From UHGV virus genome UHGV-0053799: 32,153 bases of DNA; one strand, 5' to 3'. Within the stretch, counting starts at the first letter, position 1; every line of letters starts with the position of its first letter. The notes under the pieces were generated by a model, which was given only the letters and a program-made list of their open reading frames with translations, made no database searches and had not been told where the DNA came from. The DNA is from a virus. Made by a program: the position numbers and the translations under genes. Shown in pieces: positions 6,476 through 28,524 of the stretch.

Positions 6476-6785
6476 AGTCCTGATTTGTACTCACTCATTT
6501 TCCGACTGACAATTTACTTAGCCCAAAAGCTATCAAATCTGACAGTCTGCTTTGAGCGAGGAGCGGACATTGCTAACAGCGTTTTATGTGAATTAACAGG
6601 GAGTAGGTCAACGTAGCGCTAGTGGAGTGTATTCTGGCTTAAAGTGTGGAGCAGTTGTCAGATTCAATGCTCATTGCAAAAAATTGTGTTCTAAAGAGGG
6701 CTGTTATATGTTATAGGTTGTTAAGTACCATCGGTGTAAAATACACTTAGAAGTGTCAAACAAGATCGTTCAAAAGGAAGACAAA

Positions 6786-7043
6786 ATGAATAACCAGCAG
6801 TTTAGGGATTTTTTGCGCAAAAATGCACATATTGTGGATTCCAATTGGAATCCAACAGATGCACAGCTAGATGAAATCAGAGCAGCAATACAGAGAGAAC
6901 TAGATCTAGGTAATAAGATAAACTATAGCTGCCTTCAACATATCATTATTCGCATTACTGGCACTACTAGGGTAATGATATTTGATAGCGTTGATAATAG
7001 TGATTTAAACATGCTATTAACTGCAGCAACAAAAAAGAGTTAA
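6786..7043 (+). CDS. Hypothetical small protein (cargo, first gene of a two-gene cassette)
   Basis: ATG at 6786 preceded by AAGGAAG (6774-6780); 85 aa, no TM segment; AT-rich; the track ORF from 6753 begins with GTG and lacks an RBS. Confidence 0.55.
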   Translation: MNNQQFRDFLRKNAHIVDSNWNPTDAQLDEIRAAIQRELDLGNKINYSCLQHIIIRITGTTRVMIFDSVDNSDLNMLLTAATKKS

Positions 7044-7046
7044 TAA

Positions 7047-7748
7047 ATGGAAAATTTGGAAGAAAAGCTTTCTGCGAAGAAAGCTTTGTTTATTTCATCT
7101 GTAAGAAAATTTCTCTCGTCTAAAAACAGAGATAATTTCATAGATTGCATGATCAATGGTACCGCCTATTTCAATGAGGCAGAAAAAATGGTGGGTAATA
7201 GTAAGCTACAAGGTAAGCACAACGATGGTTTATGGGTAACTGACTTAGCCGAGTCTTGTGAGGCAATACTTGACTCTTATCTTCTGCATATTGAATTTAT
7301 CAAGTCACACCATGAAGACATGATGGGTGAAAGTTATAAGAAACCAAACCTGCATGCCCTTTCCAGTATGCAAAGAATGGTGAAGATGTATTGTCAGAAA
7401 GAATCATCCAGTCACCTGAGAGAAAGATTCTTAAAAGCTAACTTACCAACAAAGGGTTTTGACGTGGCTCACAGAGACGATATTGATACTGCAAATAAAT
7501 ATATAACATTAGGTATTGGGTCAGTATTAGTTATAATGTCATTTGCTTTTGCAATGTTCATGGATAATCCTTCGTATTTTAAAATCTTTATAATAAGATC
7601 AACTTTTGCTGTTGGCTGTGCAGCCTTGGCCTCATTTGTTCCTGGATGGATAAACGTTAACGTAAAAGGGTATGTAAAAGCAGGAGGAGCCATTGCTATT
7701 ATTTTAATATTTTATTTCTTTAACCCCCCTGCAATGCTGATTGGCTAA
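7047..7748 (+). CDS. Hypothetical membrane protein: soluble N-terminal domain (~155 aa) + C-terminal 2-3 TM helices (cargo)
   Basis: 233-aa ORF starting 3 nt after the upstream stop; hydrophobic stretches YITLGIGSVLVIMSFAFAMF, FAVGCAALASFVPGWI, AGGAIAIILIFYFF; a 60-nt sample has 28% G+C. Confidence 0.6.
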   Translation: MENLEEKLSAKKALFISSVRKFLSSKNRDNFIDCMINGTAYFNEAEKMVGNSKLQGKHNDGLWVTDLAESCEAILDSYLLHIEFIKSHHEDMMGESYKKPNLHALSSMQRMVKMYCQKESSSHLRERFLKANLPTKGFDVAHRDDIDTANKYITLGIGSVLVIMSFAFAMFMDNPSYFKIFIIRSTFAVGCAALASFVPGWINVNVKGYVKAGGAIAIILIFYFFNPPAMLIG

Positions 7749-7790
7749 ATTCCCTCCTAAATATGTTCTCCTGCTTATTCCTAATTCAAT

Positions 7791-7832
7791 CCATGGAGAA
7801 TTTAAATTCTGCCCTCCACCTCCATGGTTTTT
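7791..7832 (+). terminator. Putative intrinsic terminator of the cargo cassette
   Basis: CCATGGAG (7791-7798) / CTCCATGG (7820-7827) followed by TTTTT (7828-7832); the 21-nt loop makes it atypical. Confidence 0.35.
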
Positions 7833-8227
7833 CGTCCCCCTGTAAAATTGAATTTTTGAAGTATGTATTTTTCTGAGAAAATTAAAAAATCCAGCTCAAC
7901 TGAAATTGTACATCATCTATTTGGATATAGTTTTTGTTATACCAAAATATTCCTTTTCATCGCGAGGTAAAGATAACTGCAAATTGTAAGCACTAGAACG
8001 TTCATAGCAGACTTCCAACCACTGCTCGCTCTCAGTCCAGCCTTGATGGATCGCGCAATATGCCCACTTGCGTCTTTTCGAACGATGCGCAGTTGCGGCC
8101 CAATGCATACCAAGGGCTTGTGACGAGCGTTAACGTTCAAACGTCTGCTCTTGGCACAGAGCGAACTGTCAGATTAGTTTTTACTCTGTGCCATAGATGT
8201 ATAAACTCACATCAGAGCTTATACAAT

Positions 8228-13478: not shown

Positions 13479-14264
13479 ATGTTCAGTGATAATGTGACTA
13501 ATGCGTGGTGGTTTATCTCTTTGTATCTATTTTTATTAATAGCATTAACATTTGTTACCTTTGGTAAAAGTAATCTTATGAGGTTTATTGCACATCATTT
13601 CAATCTTGAGTATTCAGACAGAAAGTTAAAAATGCTCGACAAAAAATGGCGCGACATTCAACTATTTAAAATAATTAACGGAATCAATGTATCAAGCATC
13701 GAAGATGTGAGAATGATACAGCAGGGGCTGATTGATGGAAAACTAAAAACATCGTATTTTTTCCTTACTCGCTTCTGGGGTGACATAACAAAACCACCAC
13801 ACATAATTAAAACAACAATTGTAATTCTGGCCAGTATTATTTATATTCTCTTCGCATGTTATATACACAATGAACAATCCGCTATAGTAAGGGATGCCAT
13901 AGGTATACCATATAAAAATATGATGTACTATGTTTATAGTGACAAAGTTCTTTTATCCTTCAAAAATAAAACGGTTGAATTTAATAAAACTTATAGCCTT
14001 GCCGATTGCAAGAGTCTGCAAAACGTATTTATAAAAGACACACTTCCCGAGATCGCCTGCAATAAGCTCTTACAGCTAAACAAGGAGGACTCCGAATGGT
14101 TAAGTCAGGAGATTAAAGATAATAACAGCCACAGAAAAACATTATTAATAATATCCCTAACCTATTTCATTTCAGGTCTGCTTATATTCCTGTCATATAC
14201 AAAATTCCTTTACACCAATAAGAAGGTTTTAGAATACAAAGCATCAAATAAAAACCACTCATAA
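13479..14264 (+). CDS. Hypothetical membrane protein, 3 predicted TM helices (cargo at the orf30 position)
   Basis: 261-aa opposite-strand ORF with GAGGAG RBS (13466-13471); hydrophobic segments WWFISLYLFLLIALTFVTF, IIKTTIVILASIIYILFACYI, TLLIISLTYFISGLLIFLSY; a 60-nt sample has 28% G+C. Confidence 0.6.
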   Translation: MFSDNVTNAWWFISLYLFLLIALTFVTFGKSNLMRFIAHHFNLEYSDRKLKMLDKKWRDIQLFKIINGINVSSIEDVRMIQQGLIDGKLKTSYFFLTRFWGDITKPPHIIKTTIVILASIIYILFACYIHNEQSAIVRDAIGIPYKNMMYYVYSDKVLLSFKNKTVEFNKTYSLADCKSLQNVFIKDTLPEIACNKLLQLNKEDSEWLSQEIKDNNSHRKTLLIISLTYFISGLLIFLSYTKFLYTNKKVLEYKASNKNHS

Positions 14265-14274
14265 ACCTCTAAAT

Positions 14275-14301
14275 ATTGAGCGACCAGCACGGCCGCTCAA
14301 T
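14275..14301. terminator. Hairpin between convergent genes (possible bidirectional terminator)
   Basis: ATTGAGCG (14275-14282) / CGCTCAAT (14294-14301), 11-nt loop, between the cargo stop (14264) and the S stop (14336); flanks only moderately T-rich. Confidence 0.4.
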
Positions 14302-14335
14302 GCTTAATTGCGCATCAGCCTCTGCCTGGATAAAA

Positions 14336-14788
14336 CTAACGCTCAAGGTGAGCCAGGATAATCTCTTCAATCATCTGCACATCCTCACCGGTAAAGCCGA
14401 GCAGAGGACGCGCCGGATAATCAATTTTCTTACCGTCTTTCCGGTTTTCTTCCGACAGACCGAACTGATGCACACTGGCGATTTTCGGTGACTTCCCGCC
14501 GTAAAACTCCATTGATGCCTGTTCCGGGCTGGCGCGGATATGCAAAAAACGACTGGTGATAAGTTTCGTAAACATTTTTCGCTTAACACGACCGGTCTTT
14601 TTTCTGGCGCTCTGCTGCTGGCGTGGCGCGTAGGGTGTGCCGTCCGGAGCTTTCTGTGCCATCACCCGACGCTGCTGACTCTGCCGCAGGCGTTTCGCCA
14701 GTTCGGCACTCAGTCGCCGACGCCCTGACGGTGACAGCGATTCAATCAGTCCGGTCAGCCGGTCTTCAAAACGCTTAAACTCATTCAT
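14336..14788 (-). CDS. S: Tail completion protein S
   Basis: 150-aa ORF, same length and position as P2 gpS. Confidence 0.9.
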   Translation of the reverse strand: MNEFKRFEDRLTGLIESLSPSGRRRLSAELAKRLRQSQQRRVMAQKAPDGTPYAPRQQQSARKKTGRVKRKMFTKLITSRFLHIRASPEQASMEFYGGKSPKIASVHQFGLSEENRKDGKKIDYPARPLLGFTGEDVQMIEEIILAHLER

Positions 14789-22481: not shown

Positions 22482-23515
22482 TGAGCAAGAAAAAAGGGAA
22501 AACACCGCGACCAGCGGCAAAAACAATGACCGCCAGCGCCCCGAAAATGGAGGCATTCACCTTTGGTGAGCCGGTGCCGGTACTCGATCGCCGTGACATT
22601 CTGGATTACGTCGAGTGCATCAGTAACGGCAGATGGTATGAGCCACCGGTCAGCTTTACCGGTCTGGCAAAAAGCCTGCGTGCTGCCGTGCATCACAGCT
22701 CCCCGATTTACGTCAAACGTAATATTCTGGCCTCGACATTTATCCCGCATCCGTGGCTTTCCCAGCAGGATTTCAGCCGCTTTGTGCTGGATTTTCTGGT
22801 GTTCGGTAATGCGTTTCTGGAAAAGCGTTACAGCACCACCGGTAAGGTCATCAGACTGGAAACCTCACCGGCAAAATATACCCGCCGTGGCGTGGAAGAA
22901 GATATTTACTGGTGGGTGCCGTCCTTCAACGAGCCAACACCTTTCGCGCCCGGCTCCGTGTTTCACCTGCTGGAGCCGGATATCAATCAGGAGCTGTACG
23001 GCCTGCCGGAATATCTCAGCGCCCTTAACTCTGCCTGGCTGAATGAATCAGCCACGCTGTTCCGCCGCAAGTATTACGAAAACGGCGCACATGCCGGATA
23101 CATCATGTACGTCACCGATGCCGTGCAGGATCGCAACGATATCGAAATGCTCCGCGAAAACATGGTGAAGTCGAAAGGCCGCAACAACTTTAAAAACCTG
23201 TTTCTCTATGCCCCACAGGGGAAAGCCGACGGCATTAAAATTATCCCGCTCAGTGAAGTGGCAACGAAGGACGATTTTTTTAATATCAAAAAAGCCAGCG
23301 CCGCTGACCTGCTGGACGCGCACCGCATCCCCTTTCAGTTGATGGGCGGCAAGCCGGAGAACGTCGGGTCGCTGGGTGATATTGAGAAAGTGGCAAAGGT
23401 CTTTGTCCGCAATGAGCTTATCCCGCTACAGGACAGGATCCGCGAGATAAACGGCTGGCTCGGTCAGGAGGTCATCCGCTTTAAAAACTACTCACTGGAC
23501 ACTGACAACGGCTGA
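22481..23515 (+). CDS. Q: Portal (capsid vertex) protein Q
   Basis: 344-aa ORF; TGATG stop/start overlap with P; last gene before cos. Confidence 0.9.
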   Translation: MSKKKGKTPRPAAKTMTASAPKMEAFTFGEPVPVLDRRDILDYVECISNGRWYEPPVSFTGLAKSLRAAVHHSSPIYVKRNILASTFIPHPWLSQQDFSRFVLDFLVFGNAFLEKRYSTTGKVIRLETSPAKYTRRGVEEDIYWWVPSFNEPTPFAPGSVFHLLEPDINQELYGLPEYLSALNSAWLNESATLFRRKYYENGAHAGYIMYVTDAVQDRNDIEMLRENMVKSKGRNNFKNLFLYAPQGKADGIKIIPLSEVATKDDFFNIKKASAADLLDAHRIPFQLMGGKPENVGSLGDIEKVAKVFVRNELIPLQDRIREINGWLGQEVIRFKNYSLDTDNG

Positions 23516-23520
23516 ACATC

Positions 23521-23542
23521 GCCGCCTGCGGGCGGCTTTTTT
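23521..23542 (+). terminator. Rho-independent terminator after Q
   Basis: GCCGCC-tgcg-GGCGGC followed by TTTTTT (23537-23542), 5 nt past the Q stop codon. Confidence 0.8.
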
Positions 23543-23684
23543 ACACCCCGTCATCACGCCCTCACACGCTCACCACAGCACAAAACACCCCGCAGACACA
23601 CCAACGCCTCAACGGGCAGACTAAGCGCCTTCACGACGCGCTGAGACGCTGAAAAAATAAAATCAGCACCACCGTCAGCGCGCA

Positions 23685-23703
23685 GTGCTTTCCCCGCCTC
23701 GCC
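23685..23703. other. cos: cos cohesive-end sequence
   Basis: Plus strand gtgctttccccgcctcgcc is the reverse complement of GGCGAGGCGGGGAAAGCAC, which I recall as the P2 19-nt cohesive end; position directly beyond Q fits. Confidence 0.75.
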
Positions 23704-23828
23704 CGCCCGCTTCATGGGGCGGTTTTAATGCAGTTGCATGAGCCCACTATAAGTGCATTAGAACTGGCTGAATGAAGAGACAGCGCTTAATCTAGGAAGA
23801 TGCAATAAAATGCAACGCAATGCACTTC

Positions 23829-24527
23829 TTACAACTTCGTCATTGCTGACTCAAATTCATCATTAAATGGCTTAATTTGAGATGATGTTAGTTTTTTTAC
23901 GAACTTTTTTGTTGTTGTTTGAACTACGATTCTACCTTCACCAAGAGCATTCCCCTGGCATTCTTTTACGAACCATTCTTGAGTTACTGATGTGGTAATA
24001 CTCATTGGGATCACAAGCGTTAATATATCTCCGTAGTCTTCTAAAACATGCGGTAACTTGCCAGAGATAAGCGTCCTGGGGTTTACCAATATATTCATTG
24101 CTTTATTATTAGAAAATTGCAACACAACTGATTGAATATTACTCCTTACTTTTCTTTTGTTTGTTATGGTTATTGATATTGCTGTATCTGTAGTGCTAGG
24201 TAAGTACATTGATGGCATTAACACCATGCTATATCGAATAGCAATTTCTTCTGAATTTTCCTTTAGCGAACGGTGTGCTAACAACAATGATGTCGCAACA
24301 GCAGAAAATGCCCCCACCCCAGAAACCCAAGTACCCAACATGGTCAAAAAAGGTATTGTAATTAATTGGTATTTAGTGTCACCATTCAAACCAACACCAC
24401 TATAACCCACGTAACACCCTATAAAAAAGAATAGACAAGCCGTTATTAAAAAAAATAATAAATGCATAGAACTTATATTTTTAAATTTCAGCAACAAACC
24501 TCTTAAAATATATTTGCATCTCTTCAT
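23829..24527 (-). CDS. Hypothetical membrane protein, 2 N-terminal TM helices + ~130-aa soluble C-terminal domain (cargo)
   Basis: 232-aa ORF; hydrophobic LLFFLITACLFFFIGCYVGY and ITIPFLTMLGTWVSGVGAFSAVATSLLLA; a 60-nt sample has 18% G+C. Confidence 0.55.
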   Translation of the reverse strand: MKRCKYILRGLLLKFKNISSMHLLFFLITACLFFFIGCYVGYSGVGLNGDTKYQLITIPFLTMLGTWVSGVGAFSAVATSLLLAHRSLKENSEEIAIRYSMVLMPSMYLPSTTDTAISITITNKRKVRSNIQSVVLQFSNNKAMNILVNPRTLISGKLPHVLEDYGDILTLVIPMSITTSVTQEWFVKECQGNALGEGRIVVQTTTKKFVKKLTSSQIKPFNDEFESAMTKL

Positions 24528-24625
24528 TTTCTAATCTCACATTAAAATCAGACACCAATTTTTGCTAGTCACTATTTTTATGATTGCCAGCATAAATGCT
24601 GGCATCTTTATCATTCTGGCACAGT

Positions 24626-25357
24626 TCACTCACTTATAATTGATACAACCTCACCTGTTTCTACATTGACACGCGCAGCAATCGTCTGTTTCACCACTCC
24701 GCCATAAGCATTAGTTCCGCGAAACGTGGTTTTCACAATGGCATGCGGGTCTTTATTCAAAATCAGATGATATACCGTTGACACATGTTTATAAGATGAA
24801 TCATCGTTCATATTATCTTTAATTAGTTTTTCCAATGGACGATAAGAACCATCCCAACCACTAAAATTACTCTGAAATGTATCAAGATTGATTTTATTGT
24901 TTAGTGACTTCGGGTCATTTTCATAATCATTAAAGCACCACCCAAGAACATCACCGAGTTTCAACTCATCATCTTTGGTAAATGTATACTCACTCATGCA
25001 GGCATAAAACGCATCTGACGCGGCGGCTGGAACTTCCTTAAAATCAATGTAACTATTCACAATATCGTGTCGTGTTTTCTTTGACTCGTTCCGATATTCC
25101 TTGAGTGTTTTTTCACCATATTCGAATGTTTTTTGGACTTTGTGTTCTGCAACGGTTGATGTTTCAGTTTTAGCAACTGGCTGGCTTTTTTCTGTTGGAT
25201 AGAGTATTGAACCAATTATGCTCAATACAAAACCACCTCCGAGATAAACCGCACTTGCACGTTTGCGGTTTGGCATTCGCACCAGTGATGGCCTGATTAA
25301 CCCGATGAAGAAAGCAACGAAAAAAGCGAGTGATAGAAAAGCGATTATAGTATCCAT
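24626..25357 (-). CDS. Hypothetical membrane-anchored protein, 2 N-terminal TM helices + ~180-aa soluble domain (cargo)
   Basis: Start placed at the in-frame ATG 25357 (MDTIIAFLSLAFF...) because AAGGA lies 6 nt upstream; the track ORF extends to 25399 without an RBS; 243 aa. Confidence 0.55.
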   Translation of the reverse strand: MDTIIAFLSLAFFVAFFIGLIRPSLVRMPNRKRASAVYLGGGFVLSIIGSILYPTEKSQPVAKTETSTVAEHKVQKTFEYGEKTLKEYRNESKKTRHDIVNSYIDFKEVPAAASDAFYACMSEYTFTKDDELKLGDVLGWCFNDYENDPKSLNNKINLDTFQSNFSGWDGSYRPLEKLIKDNMNDDSSYKHVSTVYHLILNKDPHAIVKTTFRGTNAYGGVVKQTIAARVNVETGEVVSIISE

Positions 25358-25580
25358 AGCTATCCTTTTTGCATCATCCACATAAAAAATCGACCTCATG
25401 TTAGCAACAGGATGCTTACTTTTGAATATTTGTAAGTTGTTAGCTCTCCAACCTAACTCTTTTCAACCGTCAAAAACCAGCACCAACGCAGTAAAAATAT
25501 GTCTGTCAACTAACGCCTCGCTTCGCTCGTTGTTCAACCCCGCCAGCCCTGAAAACAAGTTTCACGACTGGCGGCGTTCT

Positions 25581-25787
25581 CTATCGTCTGCGTGGTGGTG
25601 GCGCAACTCTGGACTGACCGATATCGTTAAACCGTCTGTAATTATCCCGGACTATTTCGGCACACCCGACCAACTCGTCAGGCGTCAGATTTTCGTTGAG
25701 CATAATCTGCTGTAGACGGTGAACAATGGCCATCAGTTTGATATTTTTAGTTTTATGGTGCGGTATCTCGCCTGGTATTCTGTGCAT
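25581..25787 (-). CDS. Small hypothetical protein (68 aa)
   Basis: ATG at 25787 overlaps the TAA stop of the upstream ORF (TAATG), suggesting translational coupling; no recognisable motif. Confidence 0.3.
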   Translation of the reverse strand: MHRIPGEIPHHKTKNIKLMAIVHRLQQIMLNENLTPDELVGCAEIVRDNYRRFNDIGQSRVAPPPRRR

Positions 25788-26242
25788 TATCCAAGCCACC
25801 CATTTTGCTTTGCACGCTCCACCTGTTCATCTGAATAGTTCCATATCCCATCCGTAGCAACCACTGCCCCGCCAGACATCCCCGTCTCTGGTTCATACAT
25901 AACAGCAAGGCCGAGCTGATGCATAATCTCATGATTAATTCTGAATACCAGACCACGTTCACTAAGTTCTTTCCAGTTCACAATCTTATATGCGCCCGTA
26001 TTAAGCAGCTCAATACTTAGCAAGACATAATCTTCCAGCCAGTCTGACAGGTCAGTAACATCTGTTATCCGGGCTTCAACCTTTCGCCCCGTAAACACAC
26101 CCTGCACCCATTCATGCAAAATCAGCGTGTCCCCGCGCTCATAATTACGGTCATTTTTCCGAAACTCTGCGCGTTTCTTTCCTTCCAGCACAAGGTCAAA
26201 ATATTTGGCGTGCAGCTTTACCTCGTGAATTTTTGCCATCAT
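25787..26242 (-). CDS. ASCH/DUF3850-like (PUA-fold) protein with a C-terminal extension
   Basis: GKKRAEFR fits the ASCH motif GxKxxExR; GGAG RBS; start ATG overlaps the A stop codon (ATGA); C-terminal extension contains HEIMH. Confidence 0.65.
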   Translation of the reverse strand: MMAKIHEVKLHAKYFDLVLEGKKRAEFRKNDRNYERGDTLILHEWVQGVFTGRKVEARITDVTDLSDWLEDYVLLSIELLNTGAYKIVNWKELSERGLVFRINHEIMHQLGLAVMYEPETGMSGGAVVATDGIWNYSDEQVERAKQNGWLG

Positions 26243-28524
26243 TTCCACTCCATTACTATTGAGAATCCCGGCCACTCATCAGCGACCGGATACGTGAATT
26301 TTTTCCCGTCGTAATTTACGGTCGCGCCACGCGCCAGCGCCTCAAGCTCCCATCGCTGCGGCCTGATACCGTTCTGAGCGAGATCAACGCGGATACGGGT
26401 GATTTGCAATCGTTCAGACCGGGTCAGTCTGGCCGATGGTGCAATTTCATGTGGTTTTAACGGGCTTCCGTTTCTTTGCTGACGATTTGGTGTTCTCAGG
26501 TCGTGTTTTAATGCCCCCCTGAGCGCCCTCACGACCTCCGTGTCGTTCCATTCGATAACACCGTCATCAACCAGATTAAGCACTGCTGCGGCGTGTTCAG
26601 AAGGTGTGGGAGCCGGTAACGAAGTATCACCACCGGTGAGCTTTCCACAGTTATTGACAGGACTCCGAGGCGCGGCGATGCCGCTTTTTAAAGTCAAAGG
26701 CTCAACGACCGGAACTTTCGGCACAATGCGCCAGTCCGTCGTTCTGGTGATATGAATATGACGCGCGCCGAGATGCGGCGCGTAAATGCCGACCACTCTC
26801 TCGACTTCTTCCTCGTACTCGTTAACTTCATCCGACGGACTACGGGCAACCCTGACAGTCTGACAATCGCGCGGGACATTTGCCCCACCCTGCGCGCTGA
26901 TATACAACGCAAAATCACCACTGTCTGCGGCGGCGCGTGCAGCCTCGACGCGCTCGTCAAACTCATCAGCAATGCTGACGCCGCGAGGCAATTTGCGTAG
27001 TTCACGGTAAGCCCCCATTGTCGGCAGACCAACCGTTTTAAATTGTGGGATGCGCCACGTTGACGCCCATGCGGTAACAGCCGCAGCAGTATCTTTAAGC
27101 GGTCTGCCGGTATCGTTATCGAGCTGACCATCCAGTGCATAGCCATCGATGTTTTTTGAGATGTATTTCGCGATATACCCCGCAGCACCGCCCTGGTTAA
27201 GGTGTTTTGCCTGAAAACGGTTTCGCGCGGCTCCTCTTTCGTCGCCATCCTCTTTGAGCGCATAGCGACGCATGATTTCGATAATCTGGTTACGCTGGCG
27301 TGGATTACAAAAAAGCATCATATGCCAGTGCGGCGTTCCGTCGTGGTGTGGCTCGACGACACGCAAACCGTAGACCTGTAAATCATTATCCTTGAATGCC
27401 GTGCGCATCAGGCTCCAGATGCGGCAGAGATAACGCTGCGCATCCTTTGGATTAAATGCCTCATCGTTCCAGCCGTGATTAAGCTGAACGGTTTTACTTT
27501 CGCCTTTTCTGACCTGACGAGTCGGGTGATACTTTGACGGCGCGGTCAGCGTGATAAACATCCCCACATCACCCTCTGCGGCGGCGTAACGCTCAATACC
27601 GGCAATGGTGTTCATCAGCTCCATCCGGCGAATTTCAGGATTAGAAATACTGCCCATCACCTTACTGATAAGGTCGATGCGCTCGCCGGTTTCCCTGTTT
27701 TCAAGGTCACACGATTTAAGAAATTCCAGATTTGCCTGGCGGCGTGCACGCACATCACGAATGGCATGTTTACTGGCATAAGGAGAACGGTCTTTATTCA
27801 CCTCCCCGACAGCAATCAGTAACGCCTCATGCCAGCGCATACGCTGGCCTTTGAGCTGATGAGTCCACCACTCATCGTTAAACAGACGGGCAATGGCAGA
27901 ATATGCCTGCCTCGTGGTCATCTGTCCTTTACGGTATTTTTTCCAGTAAAGCGGGGAAATATTGAAAGCACGTGCAGCGCCAGCAACATGACCATAGAGG
28001 TGAGCCTGCGCCTCATCCGTAAACAGCGATTCTTTTTCGCCATGTGCATCCACCCAGGCATCGCTGAGTTCCTCATACATCATGAAAAGCTGCGATGAGA
28101 TACGGGCAGCAAACTTTTTCAGCTCCTTGTCATTCATTCCCGGCAGGCGCGCATAGTGGTCACGCTCTGCCAGAAACAGTAACGACGCGTCGGTGTTCAT
28201 TTCATGGCGCTGATTCACACGCTCAATGCGCGGCCATAAACGACGCTGAAAAGTGGATGTGAGGAAATAAAACCCGTGCACCGGGCTTTTATTGCGCCGG
28301 ATGTAGTCATAGCGTGAAGTAAACAGCGAGCGCAAAAAGTAAGGCAGGCGGTTAATCGTGGATAAAACACCTTGCACCTGACGCATCTCGTCACGTGTAA
28401 GGGGTCTTTCGCGCCCGACGGCCTCGCGTGGCGCGTTCCATGCATAAGCACCGGTAAACGCCTTACCGGTGCCTGCAGCAAATGCTGACGGAGGGACAAA
28501 ACGCCCGGAGGCTTTAACGGCCAT
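26239..28524 (-). CDS. A: Rolling-circle replication initiator A
   Basis: Start placed at MAVKASGRF (28524), 761 aa; HUH-type motif TPHWHMMLF (about 27311-27334) and paired tyrosines YIAKY (about 27163-27177). Confidence 0.9.
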   Translation of the reverse strand: MAVKASGRFVPPSAFAAGTGKAFTGAYAWNAPREAVGRERPLTRDEMRQVQGVLSTINRLPYFLRSLFTSRYDYIRRNKSPVHGFYFLTSTFQRRLWPRIERVNQRHEMNTDASLLFLAERDHYARLPGMNDKELKKFAARISSQLFMMYEELSDAWVDAHGEKESLFTDEAQAHLYGHVAGAARAFNISPLYWKKYRKGQMTTRQAYSAIARLFNDEWWTHQLKGQRMRWHEALLIAVGEVNKDRSPYASKHAIRDVRARRQANLEFLKSCDLENRETGERIDLISKVMGSISNPEIRRMELMNTIAGIERYAAAEGDVGMFITLTAPSKYHPTRQVRKGESKTVQLNHGWNDEAFNPKDAQRYLCRIWSLMRTAFKDNDLQVYGLRVVEPHHDGTPHWHMMLFCNPRQRNQIIEIMRRYALKEDGDERGAARNRFQAKHLNQGGAAGYIAKYISKNIDGYALDGQLDNDTGRPLKDTAAAVTAWASTWRIPQFKTVGLPTMGAYRELRKLPRGVSIADEFDERVEAARAAADSGDFALYISAQGGANVPRDCQTVRVARSPSDEVNEYEEEVERVVGIYAPHLGARHIHITRTTDWRIVPKVPVVEPLTLKSGIAAPRSPVNNCGKLTGGDTSLPAPTPSEHAAAVLNLVDDGVIEWNDTEVVRALRGALKHDLRTPNRQQRNGSPLKPHEIAPSARLTRSERLQITRIRVDLAQNGIRPQRWELEALARGATVNYDGKKFTYPVADEWPGFSIVMEWK

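Follow-up and report, generated by a model that had tools for sequence, protein, structure and literature searches.

The gene located at positions 24626–25357 on the minus strand of the window, i.e. the whole stretch of 32,153 nucleotides of the virus genome UHGV-0053799 that was analysed, is on the basis of sequence comparison the P2-type prophage copy of orf97 of coliphage 186, and its product is probably a superinfection exclusion protein of the Orf97 family that faces the periplasm and acts at or near DNA entry. This reading is due to the homology with 186 Orf97 (AAC34191.1), which has 187 of 241 residues in common with the protein (78% identity, gapless, E=5e-149), together with the predicted inner-membrane anchor and periplasmic domain. 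The GenBank record of phage 186 (U32222) carries for Orf97 the single-line annotation "expression from plasmid blocks 186 infection"; this phenotype is annotated for the 186 homologue alone, from which the window allele differs at 22% of positions. Two features of the superinfection exclusion class, a phage or prophage origin and an envelope location, are found in this protein, the location being predicted. A preliminary description of this DNA had regarded the product as a protein of unknown function, which is wrong and overlooked the homology with 186 Orf97; its guess of a superinfection exclusion or abortive-infection factor is instead supported by the 186 annotation, and a periplasmic domain, as predicted, is easier to reconcile with exclusion than with abortive infection.

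Coding sequence and genomic setting

The coding sequence comprises 243 codons and the stop, as given by the list of open reading frames and its translation, and RefSeq NZ_CP039837.1 carries the identical 243-aa product as WP_001484278.1. The P2-like prophage of E. coli O55:H7 USDA5905 matches the window, with 100% DNA identity across the gene, and the database entries for this allele all read "hypothetical protein"; among isolated phages, Escherichia phage 9W and Peduovirus P22H4 come nearest to the window. The profile of PHROG 3403 matches the protein with E=1.2e-145 and is covered from position 1 to 242 of its 243. A ribosome-binding site AAGGA (25363–25367, minus strand), read from the sequence, is located 5 nt before the ATG (25357–25355) and is kept in 186 and in P2-like relatives in the alignment of the leaders; the 243-aa frame preceded by AAGGA, as first described, is borne out by the translation, the RefSeq entry and PHROG 3403. 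An in-frame ATG at 25399 would give a 257-aa form, but its use is unlikely: two related prophages have ATA in its place, and both the 243 positions of PHROG 3403 and the RefSeq form agree with the shorter protein. The GC content of the gene is 39.1% (53% in gene A) and falls to 0.356–0.398 over 24501–25500 compared with ~0.53–0.59 in the flanking backbone windows, confirming the AT-rich DNA noticed earlier. Since the frame runs for 243 codons in AT-rich DNA and has hundreds of conserved homologues, it is judged not to be a chance ORF.

186 Orf97 and the window protein have equal length (243 aa) and share the membrane hairpin and the cysteine pair, and both genes are located in general between replication gene A and cos. 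In U32222 the order is p95, tum, t95a (a partial terminator), orf97, and t95b, with orf97 as the second gene of a LexA-repressed operon; a passage of the paper on the Salmonella prophage BTP5 (PMC5322425) credits the p95/tum/orf97 operon to Brumby et al. 1996, and a literature search for orf97 returned passing mention only. In contrast, tum, p95, the LexA box, and t95a are all missing in the window, a variable cargo gene follows orf97 where 186 has t95b and cos, the GC content of the gene is 39% against 46% in 186, and the gene is cos-proximal to a 69-bp hairpin element to which 186 orf97 is A-proximal. The search for a LexA box (CTGT-N8-ACAG, 1 mismatch) found none near the gene and a window-wide count at chance level. 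A 72-aa upstream ORF was considered as a truncated Tum and rejected, its similarity being limited to E=0.009 over just 22 residues.

The alignment of the leader with the tum-orf97 intergenic region of 186 gives homology over ~70 bp only, and the homologous leader (25368–25430, minus strand) contains a degraded t95a remnant and a weak candidate promoter. In 186, t95a is formed by a 12-bp stem and a U-tract; in its window equivalent the stem is destroyed and the sequence folds no better than shuffled ones (z=-1.25). The simplest reading would be that a 186-type fragment, comprising the t95a remnant and orf97, was transplanted into a P2-type backbone on the cos-proximal side of the 69-bp element. 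In one 331-aa database protein from a Logan assembly (P0045), a Tum-like N-terminal part (PF17282) is fused directly to Orf97 from the second membrane helix onward; a tum-orf97 operon like that of 186 has probably undergone a deletion or frameshift there.

A sigma-70 scan upstream of the gene on its own strand gave nothing at threshold; the candidate promoter in the leader (-35 TTCAAA at 25426–25421, 17-bp spacer, -10 TAACAT at 25403–25398, minus strand) was picked by eye, matches 8 of 12 positions, and is sub-threshold. A perfect TTGACA at ~25499 was discarded as a strong promoter, having no acceptable -10 within 16–18 bp. The hairpins on both sides have no U-tract on the strand of the gene. 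The gene runs in the direction of the early operon, so read-through from it is possible, and the loss of t95a would favour this; the AT-rich DNA at the gene may be silenced in the lysogen. With no promoter at threshold, flanking hairpins of this kind and the direction of the early operon, the earlier view of the gene as a separate transcription unit is not established.

The upstream hairpin belongs to a 69-bp palindromic element (25510–25578, minus strand) consisting of a 17-bp hairpin without U-tract (fold -35.2 kcal/mol, z=-4.45), which adjoins the 3' end of a small upstream gene. The element is present in 67 Peduoviridae records, in which it is almost never annotated, and the same or near-identical copies are found in related prophages (L001, 4741–4809; L005, 4833–4901 and 3861–3929); it lies upstream of orf97 in the window and downstream of it in 186, and the prophage of E. 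coli strain 2017.09.02CC has a copy on each side of the gene. The homology of P2 and Wphi to the window ends at ~25508, at the edge of the element, which marks where the conserved early-operon backbone of P2 stops. It could be a module boundary or recombination anchor, or the 3' stem-loop of the early transcript; its identification as an integron attC was rejected, its ends being by eye unlike the RYYYAAC/GTTRRRY core sites, and the Rfam search on 23400–26400 gave a sub-threshold chance match only and no family for the element. The second hairpin (24585–24604, minus strand), with an 8-bp stem and a 4-nt loop, is located 22 nt past the orf97 stop and has no U-tract on the orf97 strand (-19.2 kcal/mol for its 76-nt context, z=-2.51); this is the hairpin already reported in the spacer towards the next cargo gene.

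The preliminary description had placed ~190 bp of non-coding DNA between the gene and an ASCH ORF; the spacer is in fact non-coding, with a length of ~220 bp (25358–25580), but it borders the gene of phrog_11386 and not the ASCH/DUF3850 ORF. This small conserved gene (WP_000554766.1; minus strand, 25581–25787 and 68 aa in RefSeq, or 72 aa from the GTG at 25799) sits between the ASCH/DUF3850 ORF, the end of which it overlaps, and the spacer; it is unrelated to Tum and is probably the counterpart of Wphi gp92, annotated within the same Wphi match. The orf91 homologue (25787–26275, minus strand) encodes a DUF3850/ASCH domain at residues 16–88 and a DUF7415 domain at residues 98–140; P2 Orf91 is shorter (330 nt), and the DUF7415 C-terminal part may therefore be an addition in the window lineage.

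The gene had also been presented as cargo of the cos-to-A hotspot, and it is indeed located in the P2 A–cos slot. However, when the slot is compared across related prophages, orf97 is constant in position, while the gene between orf97 and cos differs (20–23% identity); with its place kept while the cos-side neighbour changes, orf97 varies less than genuine cargo of a hotspot, and the truly variable slot is the one between orf97 and cos. In the window this slot is occupied by a cargo gene (23829–24527, minus strand; 34% GC) encoding a 232-aa product that matches only PHROGs 23429 and 16957, both of unknown function; searches of Pfam, PADLOC, and NCBIfam gave it no match. In general layout it is like the orf97 product, with a pair of hydrophobic segments at the N-terminus and a soluble domain at the C-terminus. 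One relative has an FRG-domain gene beside the gene of the cos-proximal slot. Two further AT-rich islands of the window (6501–8000 and 13501–14500; GC 0.31–0.42 compared with ~0.55 in the prophage backbone) are likely other cargo hotspots, e.g., the Z/fun slot.

Membrane anchor, soluble domain and wider family

Residues 1–53 (25199–25357, minus strand) form a membrane hairpin, predicted as N-out/C-out, in which TM1 (~3–21) and TM2 (~34–53) are connected by the loop RPSLVRMPNRKRAS; the two N-terminal TM segments noticed in the first reading are confirmed by 19-residue hydropathy peaks of 2.69 and 1.81 and by AlphaFold helices at residues 2–21 and 31–52. The 14-residue loop contains 5 K/R and no acidic residue, the N-terminus has 0 K/R, and the charge is balanced after TM2. 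Residues 54–76 (25130–25198, minus strand) constitute a flexible linker, or tether, with pLDDT 53–66 and no secondary structure, whose identity to 186 Orf97 is 48% versus 74–89% for the other segments. The soluble part, first described as Asp/Asn/Lys-rich, is enriched in K, T, E, S, V, D, and N. Of 90 diverse relatives, 79 have Cys120 together with Cys141 and the other 11 have neither; in the AlphaFold model the two sit in adjacent helices, 7 residues away from the ends that face each other, a pattern that a structural disulfide would show. Moreover, the relatives carry the same domain on different anchors, such as lipoprotein signal peptides (e.g., P0129, P0138, and P0341) or a single membrane helix, which a zinc ribbon precedes in some and a bacterial PH domain accompanies in others. 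Based on three independent lines, i.e. the positive-inside rule, the cysteine pair and the interchangeable anchors, the protein is predicted with good support to reside in the inner membrane with its ~190-residue soluble part in the periplasm, thus giving an outcome to the topology prediction proposed at the outset.

The AlphaFold model has a mean pLDDT of 92.3 for the full-length protein, and the soluble domain alone reaches pLDDT 97.3 and pTM 0.87. Residues 77–163 (24869–25129, minus strand) form a helical subdomain with an HdeA/HdeB-like fold that contains the Cys120-Cys141 pair, whose best fold matches in structure comparison are HdeA/HdeB, Rap1a, and Tai4. Residues 164–243 (24629–24868, minus strand) form a C-terminal alpha+beta module of one helix and a four-stranded antiparallel sheet, characterized by the motif FSxWDGS(Y/H)..L...IK..MND..SY.H..T...F.G.NA(F/Y)G. 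The structural matches, at 5–17% identity, represent a general resemblance of fold and not family membership. The remote-homology and structure searches that had been suggested gave 186 Orf97 as a full-length homologue; Foldseek against the PDB returned nothing significant (best E=0.15); the structure matches in BFVD are unnamed phage proteins only. Searches of the protein against Pfam, NCBIfam, PADLOC, and PDB sequences gave no family for the soluble domain, and PADLOC-DB v2, which includes the PD-T4/PD-lambda systems of P2 hotspots, gave 0 families at E<=1.

An exhaustive HMMER search matched 2,090 cluster representatives (50% identity clusters) at E<=1e-3, with 572 at E<=1e-10. Among the best 150 of the 2,090, ~95, a count that includes fragments of close relatives, extend beyond the C-terminal module, many of them over the whole soluble domain, and ~50 share the C-terminal module alone, from ~residue 155. 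In these module-only relatives the N-terminal part is a different one, in many cases comprising a long linker of coiled-coil-like character and a membrane anchor. The module also occurs in signal-peptide proteins of 100–135 aa from Planctomycetota, Bacteroidota, Desulfobacterota, and Gammaproteobacteria, all hypothetical and with no Pfam domain; similarly, Pfam assigned the soluble domain to no family when run on 91 relatives. The near-invariant residues F165, S166, G170, K180, S188, H191, T194, and N216 are all located in the C-terminal module. Near-invariant polar residues across phyla would fit better with a conserved ligand or a catalytic site than with a fast-evolving phage protein as the partner, and this conservation argues that the module may bind something common to many bacteria, or be an assembly or catalytic unit.

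All five informative genomic contexts of relatives are prophages, a count that leaves aside P0264, P0249, and P0275 (too short or not on record) and the uninformative P0268. In particular, P0129 adjoins an S24 repressor, P0121 an Ogr/Delta gene, and P0143 an HTH repressor, with lysogeny and packaging modules on either side; P0138 is divergent from an HTH repressor at the prophage edge, and P0341 directly follows tail-tube and chaperone genes. In Vibrio phage VHML a homologue is likewise located after the tail genes.

Probable superinfection exclusion and alternative explanations

As a superinfection exclusion protein, the orf97 product would be anchored in the inner membrane by the two-helix hairpin, with the 14-residue basic loop as its sole cytoplasmic part, and a tether of ~23 flexible residues would hold in the periplasm a 167-residue domain, predicted to bear a disulfide and made up of the HdeA-like helical subdomain and the highly conserved NTF2/cystatin-like module. 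Its action would take place at the envelope stage, after adsorption and at or before the passage of DNA across the inner membrane, on a partner that could come in with the contractile tail (tail tip or tape-measure protein) or else be part of the host envelope, conserved and needed by the phage. The C-terminal module would recognise something widespread in bacteria, while the helical subdomain and the tether, which are more variable, may confer specificity; the outcome would be that the DNA of 186/P2-type phages stays out and the cell survives. In 186, orf97 is switched on by the SOS response together with the antirepressor Tum, a control lost in the window, where the protein would be made from its own weak promoter in the lysogen or through read-through from the early operon during lytic growth; in the latter case it would keep the cell that makes it from being re-infected by progeny or competitors. 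Against this account weigh the near-invariant polar residues of the C-terminal module, which suit a fast-evolving phage partner less well, and the PADLOC, PHROG, and PDB-sequence searches, in which the protein matched none of the known exclusion families.

The fold of the helical subdomain also allows a different role, in which the protein protects the envelope or contributes to host fitness, its domain binding or inhibiting a cell-wall enzyme or stressed periplasmic proteins, and the block of 186 is a side effect. Precedents are found in the best fold matches themselves, Rap1a and Tai4 being inhibitors of peptidoglycan amidases and HdeA/HdeB chaperones; such protection might cover lysis from without, the phage's own endolysin, or T6SS attack, and the conservation of the C-terminal module across distant phyla suggests a conserved bacterial ligand. 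Furthermore, 186 orf97 is induced with the SOS response, and released P2-like virions kill sister lysogens (PMC13622650). However, this role is unlikely: the identity to HdeA/HdeB, Rap1a, and Tai4 is 5–16%, with no relationship at the sequence level, the sole experimental statement, i.e. the 186 GenBank note, concerns a block to phage infection, and the informative contexts of the family are prophages without exception.

The same GenBank note does not separate exclusion from abortive infection, in which the hairpin, as a toxic membrane effector, would damage the inner membrane on sensing infection and kill the cell before phage release; the protein is in fact membrane-anchored and encoded in a defence hotspot, and transmembrane effectors are common in abortive systems (PMC9122126). 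What makes this quite improbable is the architecture of the protein, because 14 cytoplasmic residues offer no obvious sensor of intracellular infection, the conservation is in the periplasmic domain and not in the anchor, and the exchange of the anchor with lipoprotein signals or single helices across the family points to a tether rather than an effector. In addition, the neighbours vary, leaving no partner gene, and no PADLOC model is matched.

A prophage-encoded protein that faces the periplasm could also prevent adsorption, by altering the LPS or an outer-membrane receptor in such a way that the phage cannot attach. Receptor-masking exclusion proteins such as Cor and Llp are known. Zip is a receptor-masking exclusion protein as well (10.1101/2024.03.05.583538). 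Nevertheless, in the family searches the protein resembled no glycosyltransferase, acetyltransferase, or known receptor blocker, and in the model ~23 flexible residues from the inner membrane would be too short to reach the outer-membrane surface, making an adsorption block very unlikely. Finally, that the gene is a silent passenger, deprived of p95 in the P2-type context and of any useful expression, as the missing tum, p95, and LexA box, the lack of an upstream promoter match at threshold and the AT-rich DNA might indicate, is scarcely probable, since 85 of 5,426 complete E. coli genomes, as well as several isolated phages, have the ORF intact and 92–100% conserved, its ribosome-binding site is retained, and t95a, which limits expression in 186, is lost.

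Superinfection exclusion by an Orf97-type protein is of interest in relation to what is described for the P2 hotspots, whose defence genes act mostly on unrelated phages and almost never on P2-like ones, 186 having escaped every tested system in one survey (PMC9122126). A protein annotated to block 186 may thus be a rare weapon of the P2 family against its own kind, or, alternatively, may serve to stop a phage's own progeny from re-infecting the producers, according to the 'anti-Kronos' idea (PMC13622650). The orf97 gene itself is already known, and its regulatory and genomic setting in the window is new, as are the periplasmic two-domain model, the predicted disulfide, the near-invariant residues and the large unnamed domain family. 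A bolder and more doubtful proposal is that the ~80-residue module (FSxWDGSH/Y...MNDPxSYxH...FRGxNAFGG), whose ~2,090 clusters range from Enterobacteria to Planctomycetota and Bacteroidota, defines a large unnamed extracytoplasmic family of general phage-entry blockers that recognise a universally conserved component of the envelope; if true, Orf97 would be its sole experimentally touched member, and prophages of many lineages would use the module on interchangeable anchors. The module is widespread yet nameless in Pfam, NCBIfam, PADLOC, and the PDB, and the characterization of one member would provide an annotation for thousands of prophage proteins.

Comparison with known systems

In P2 the same slot, between gene A/orf91 and cos, is occupied by old and tin, which run from near cos towards A, i.e. 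in the direction opposite to that of the orf97 homologue. BLASTP of the protein against P2 Tin and Old (NP_046797.1 and NP_046798.1) gave best E values of 1.2 and 3.7, without similarity to either, confirming that Old and Tin are absent here as initially stated.

At the level of fold, HdeA/HdeB, YmgD, Rap1a, and Tai4, the last two being T6SS amidase-immunity proteins, share with the helical subdomain a periplasmic all-helical fold; the identity is 5–16% and there is no match to Pfam HdeA. In contrast to these proteins, the HdeA-like fold of the orf97 product is fused to a membrane anchor and to a second module. For the C-terminal module, the matches to NTF2-like, VirB8-like, and cystatin-like domains (TcpC, TraE, PrgL, DotI, and cystatins) have low Z and 5–17% identity; the module is smaller (~80 aa) and has its own conserved motif, which is absent from these families.

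Among functional counterparts, the inner-membrane superinfection exclusion proteins include HK97 gp15, T4 Imm, P22 SieA, and lactococcal Sie2009, which are likewise small, anchored in the cytoplasmic membrane with their bulk outside, and reported to block related phages; the orf97 product has no sequence or profile similarity to them and differs in its two-subdomain periplasmic architecture. T4 Spackle (Sp) instead works in the periplasm, where it inhibits gp5, the tail lysozyme. It is soluble after cleavage of its signal peptide, unlike the membrane-anchored orf97 product, and is absent among the listed structural matches; being periplasmic, phage-encoded, and directed at the incoming tail, it nonetheless represents a plausible mechanistic analogue.
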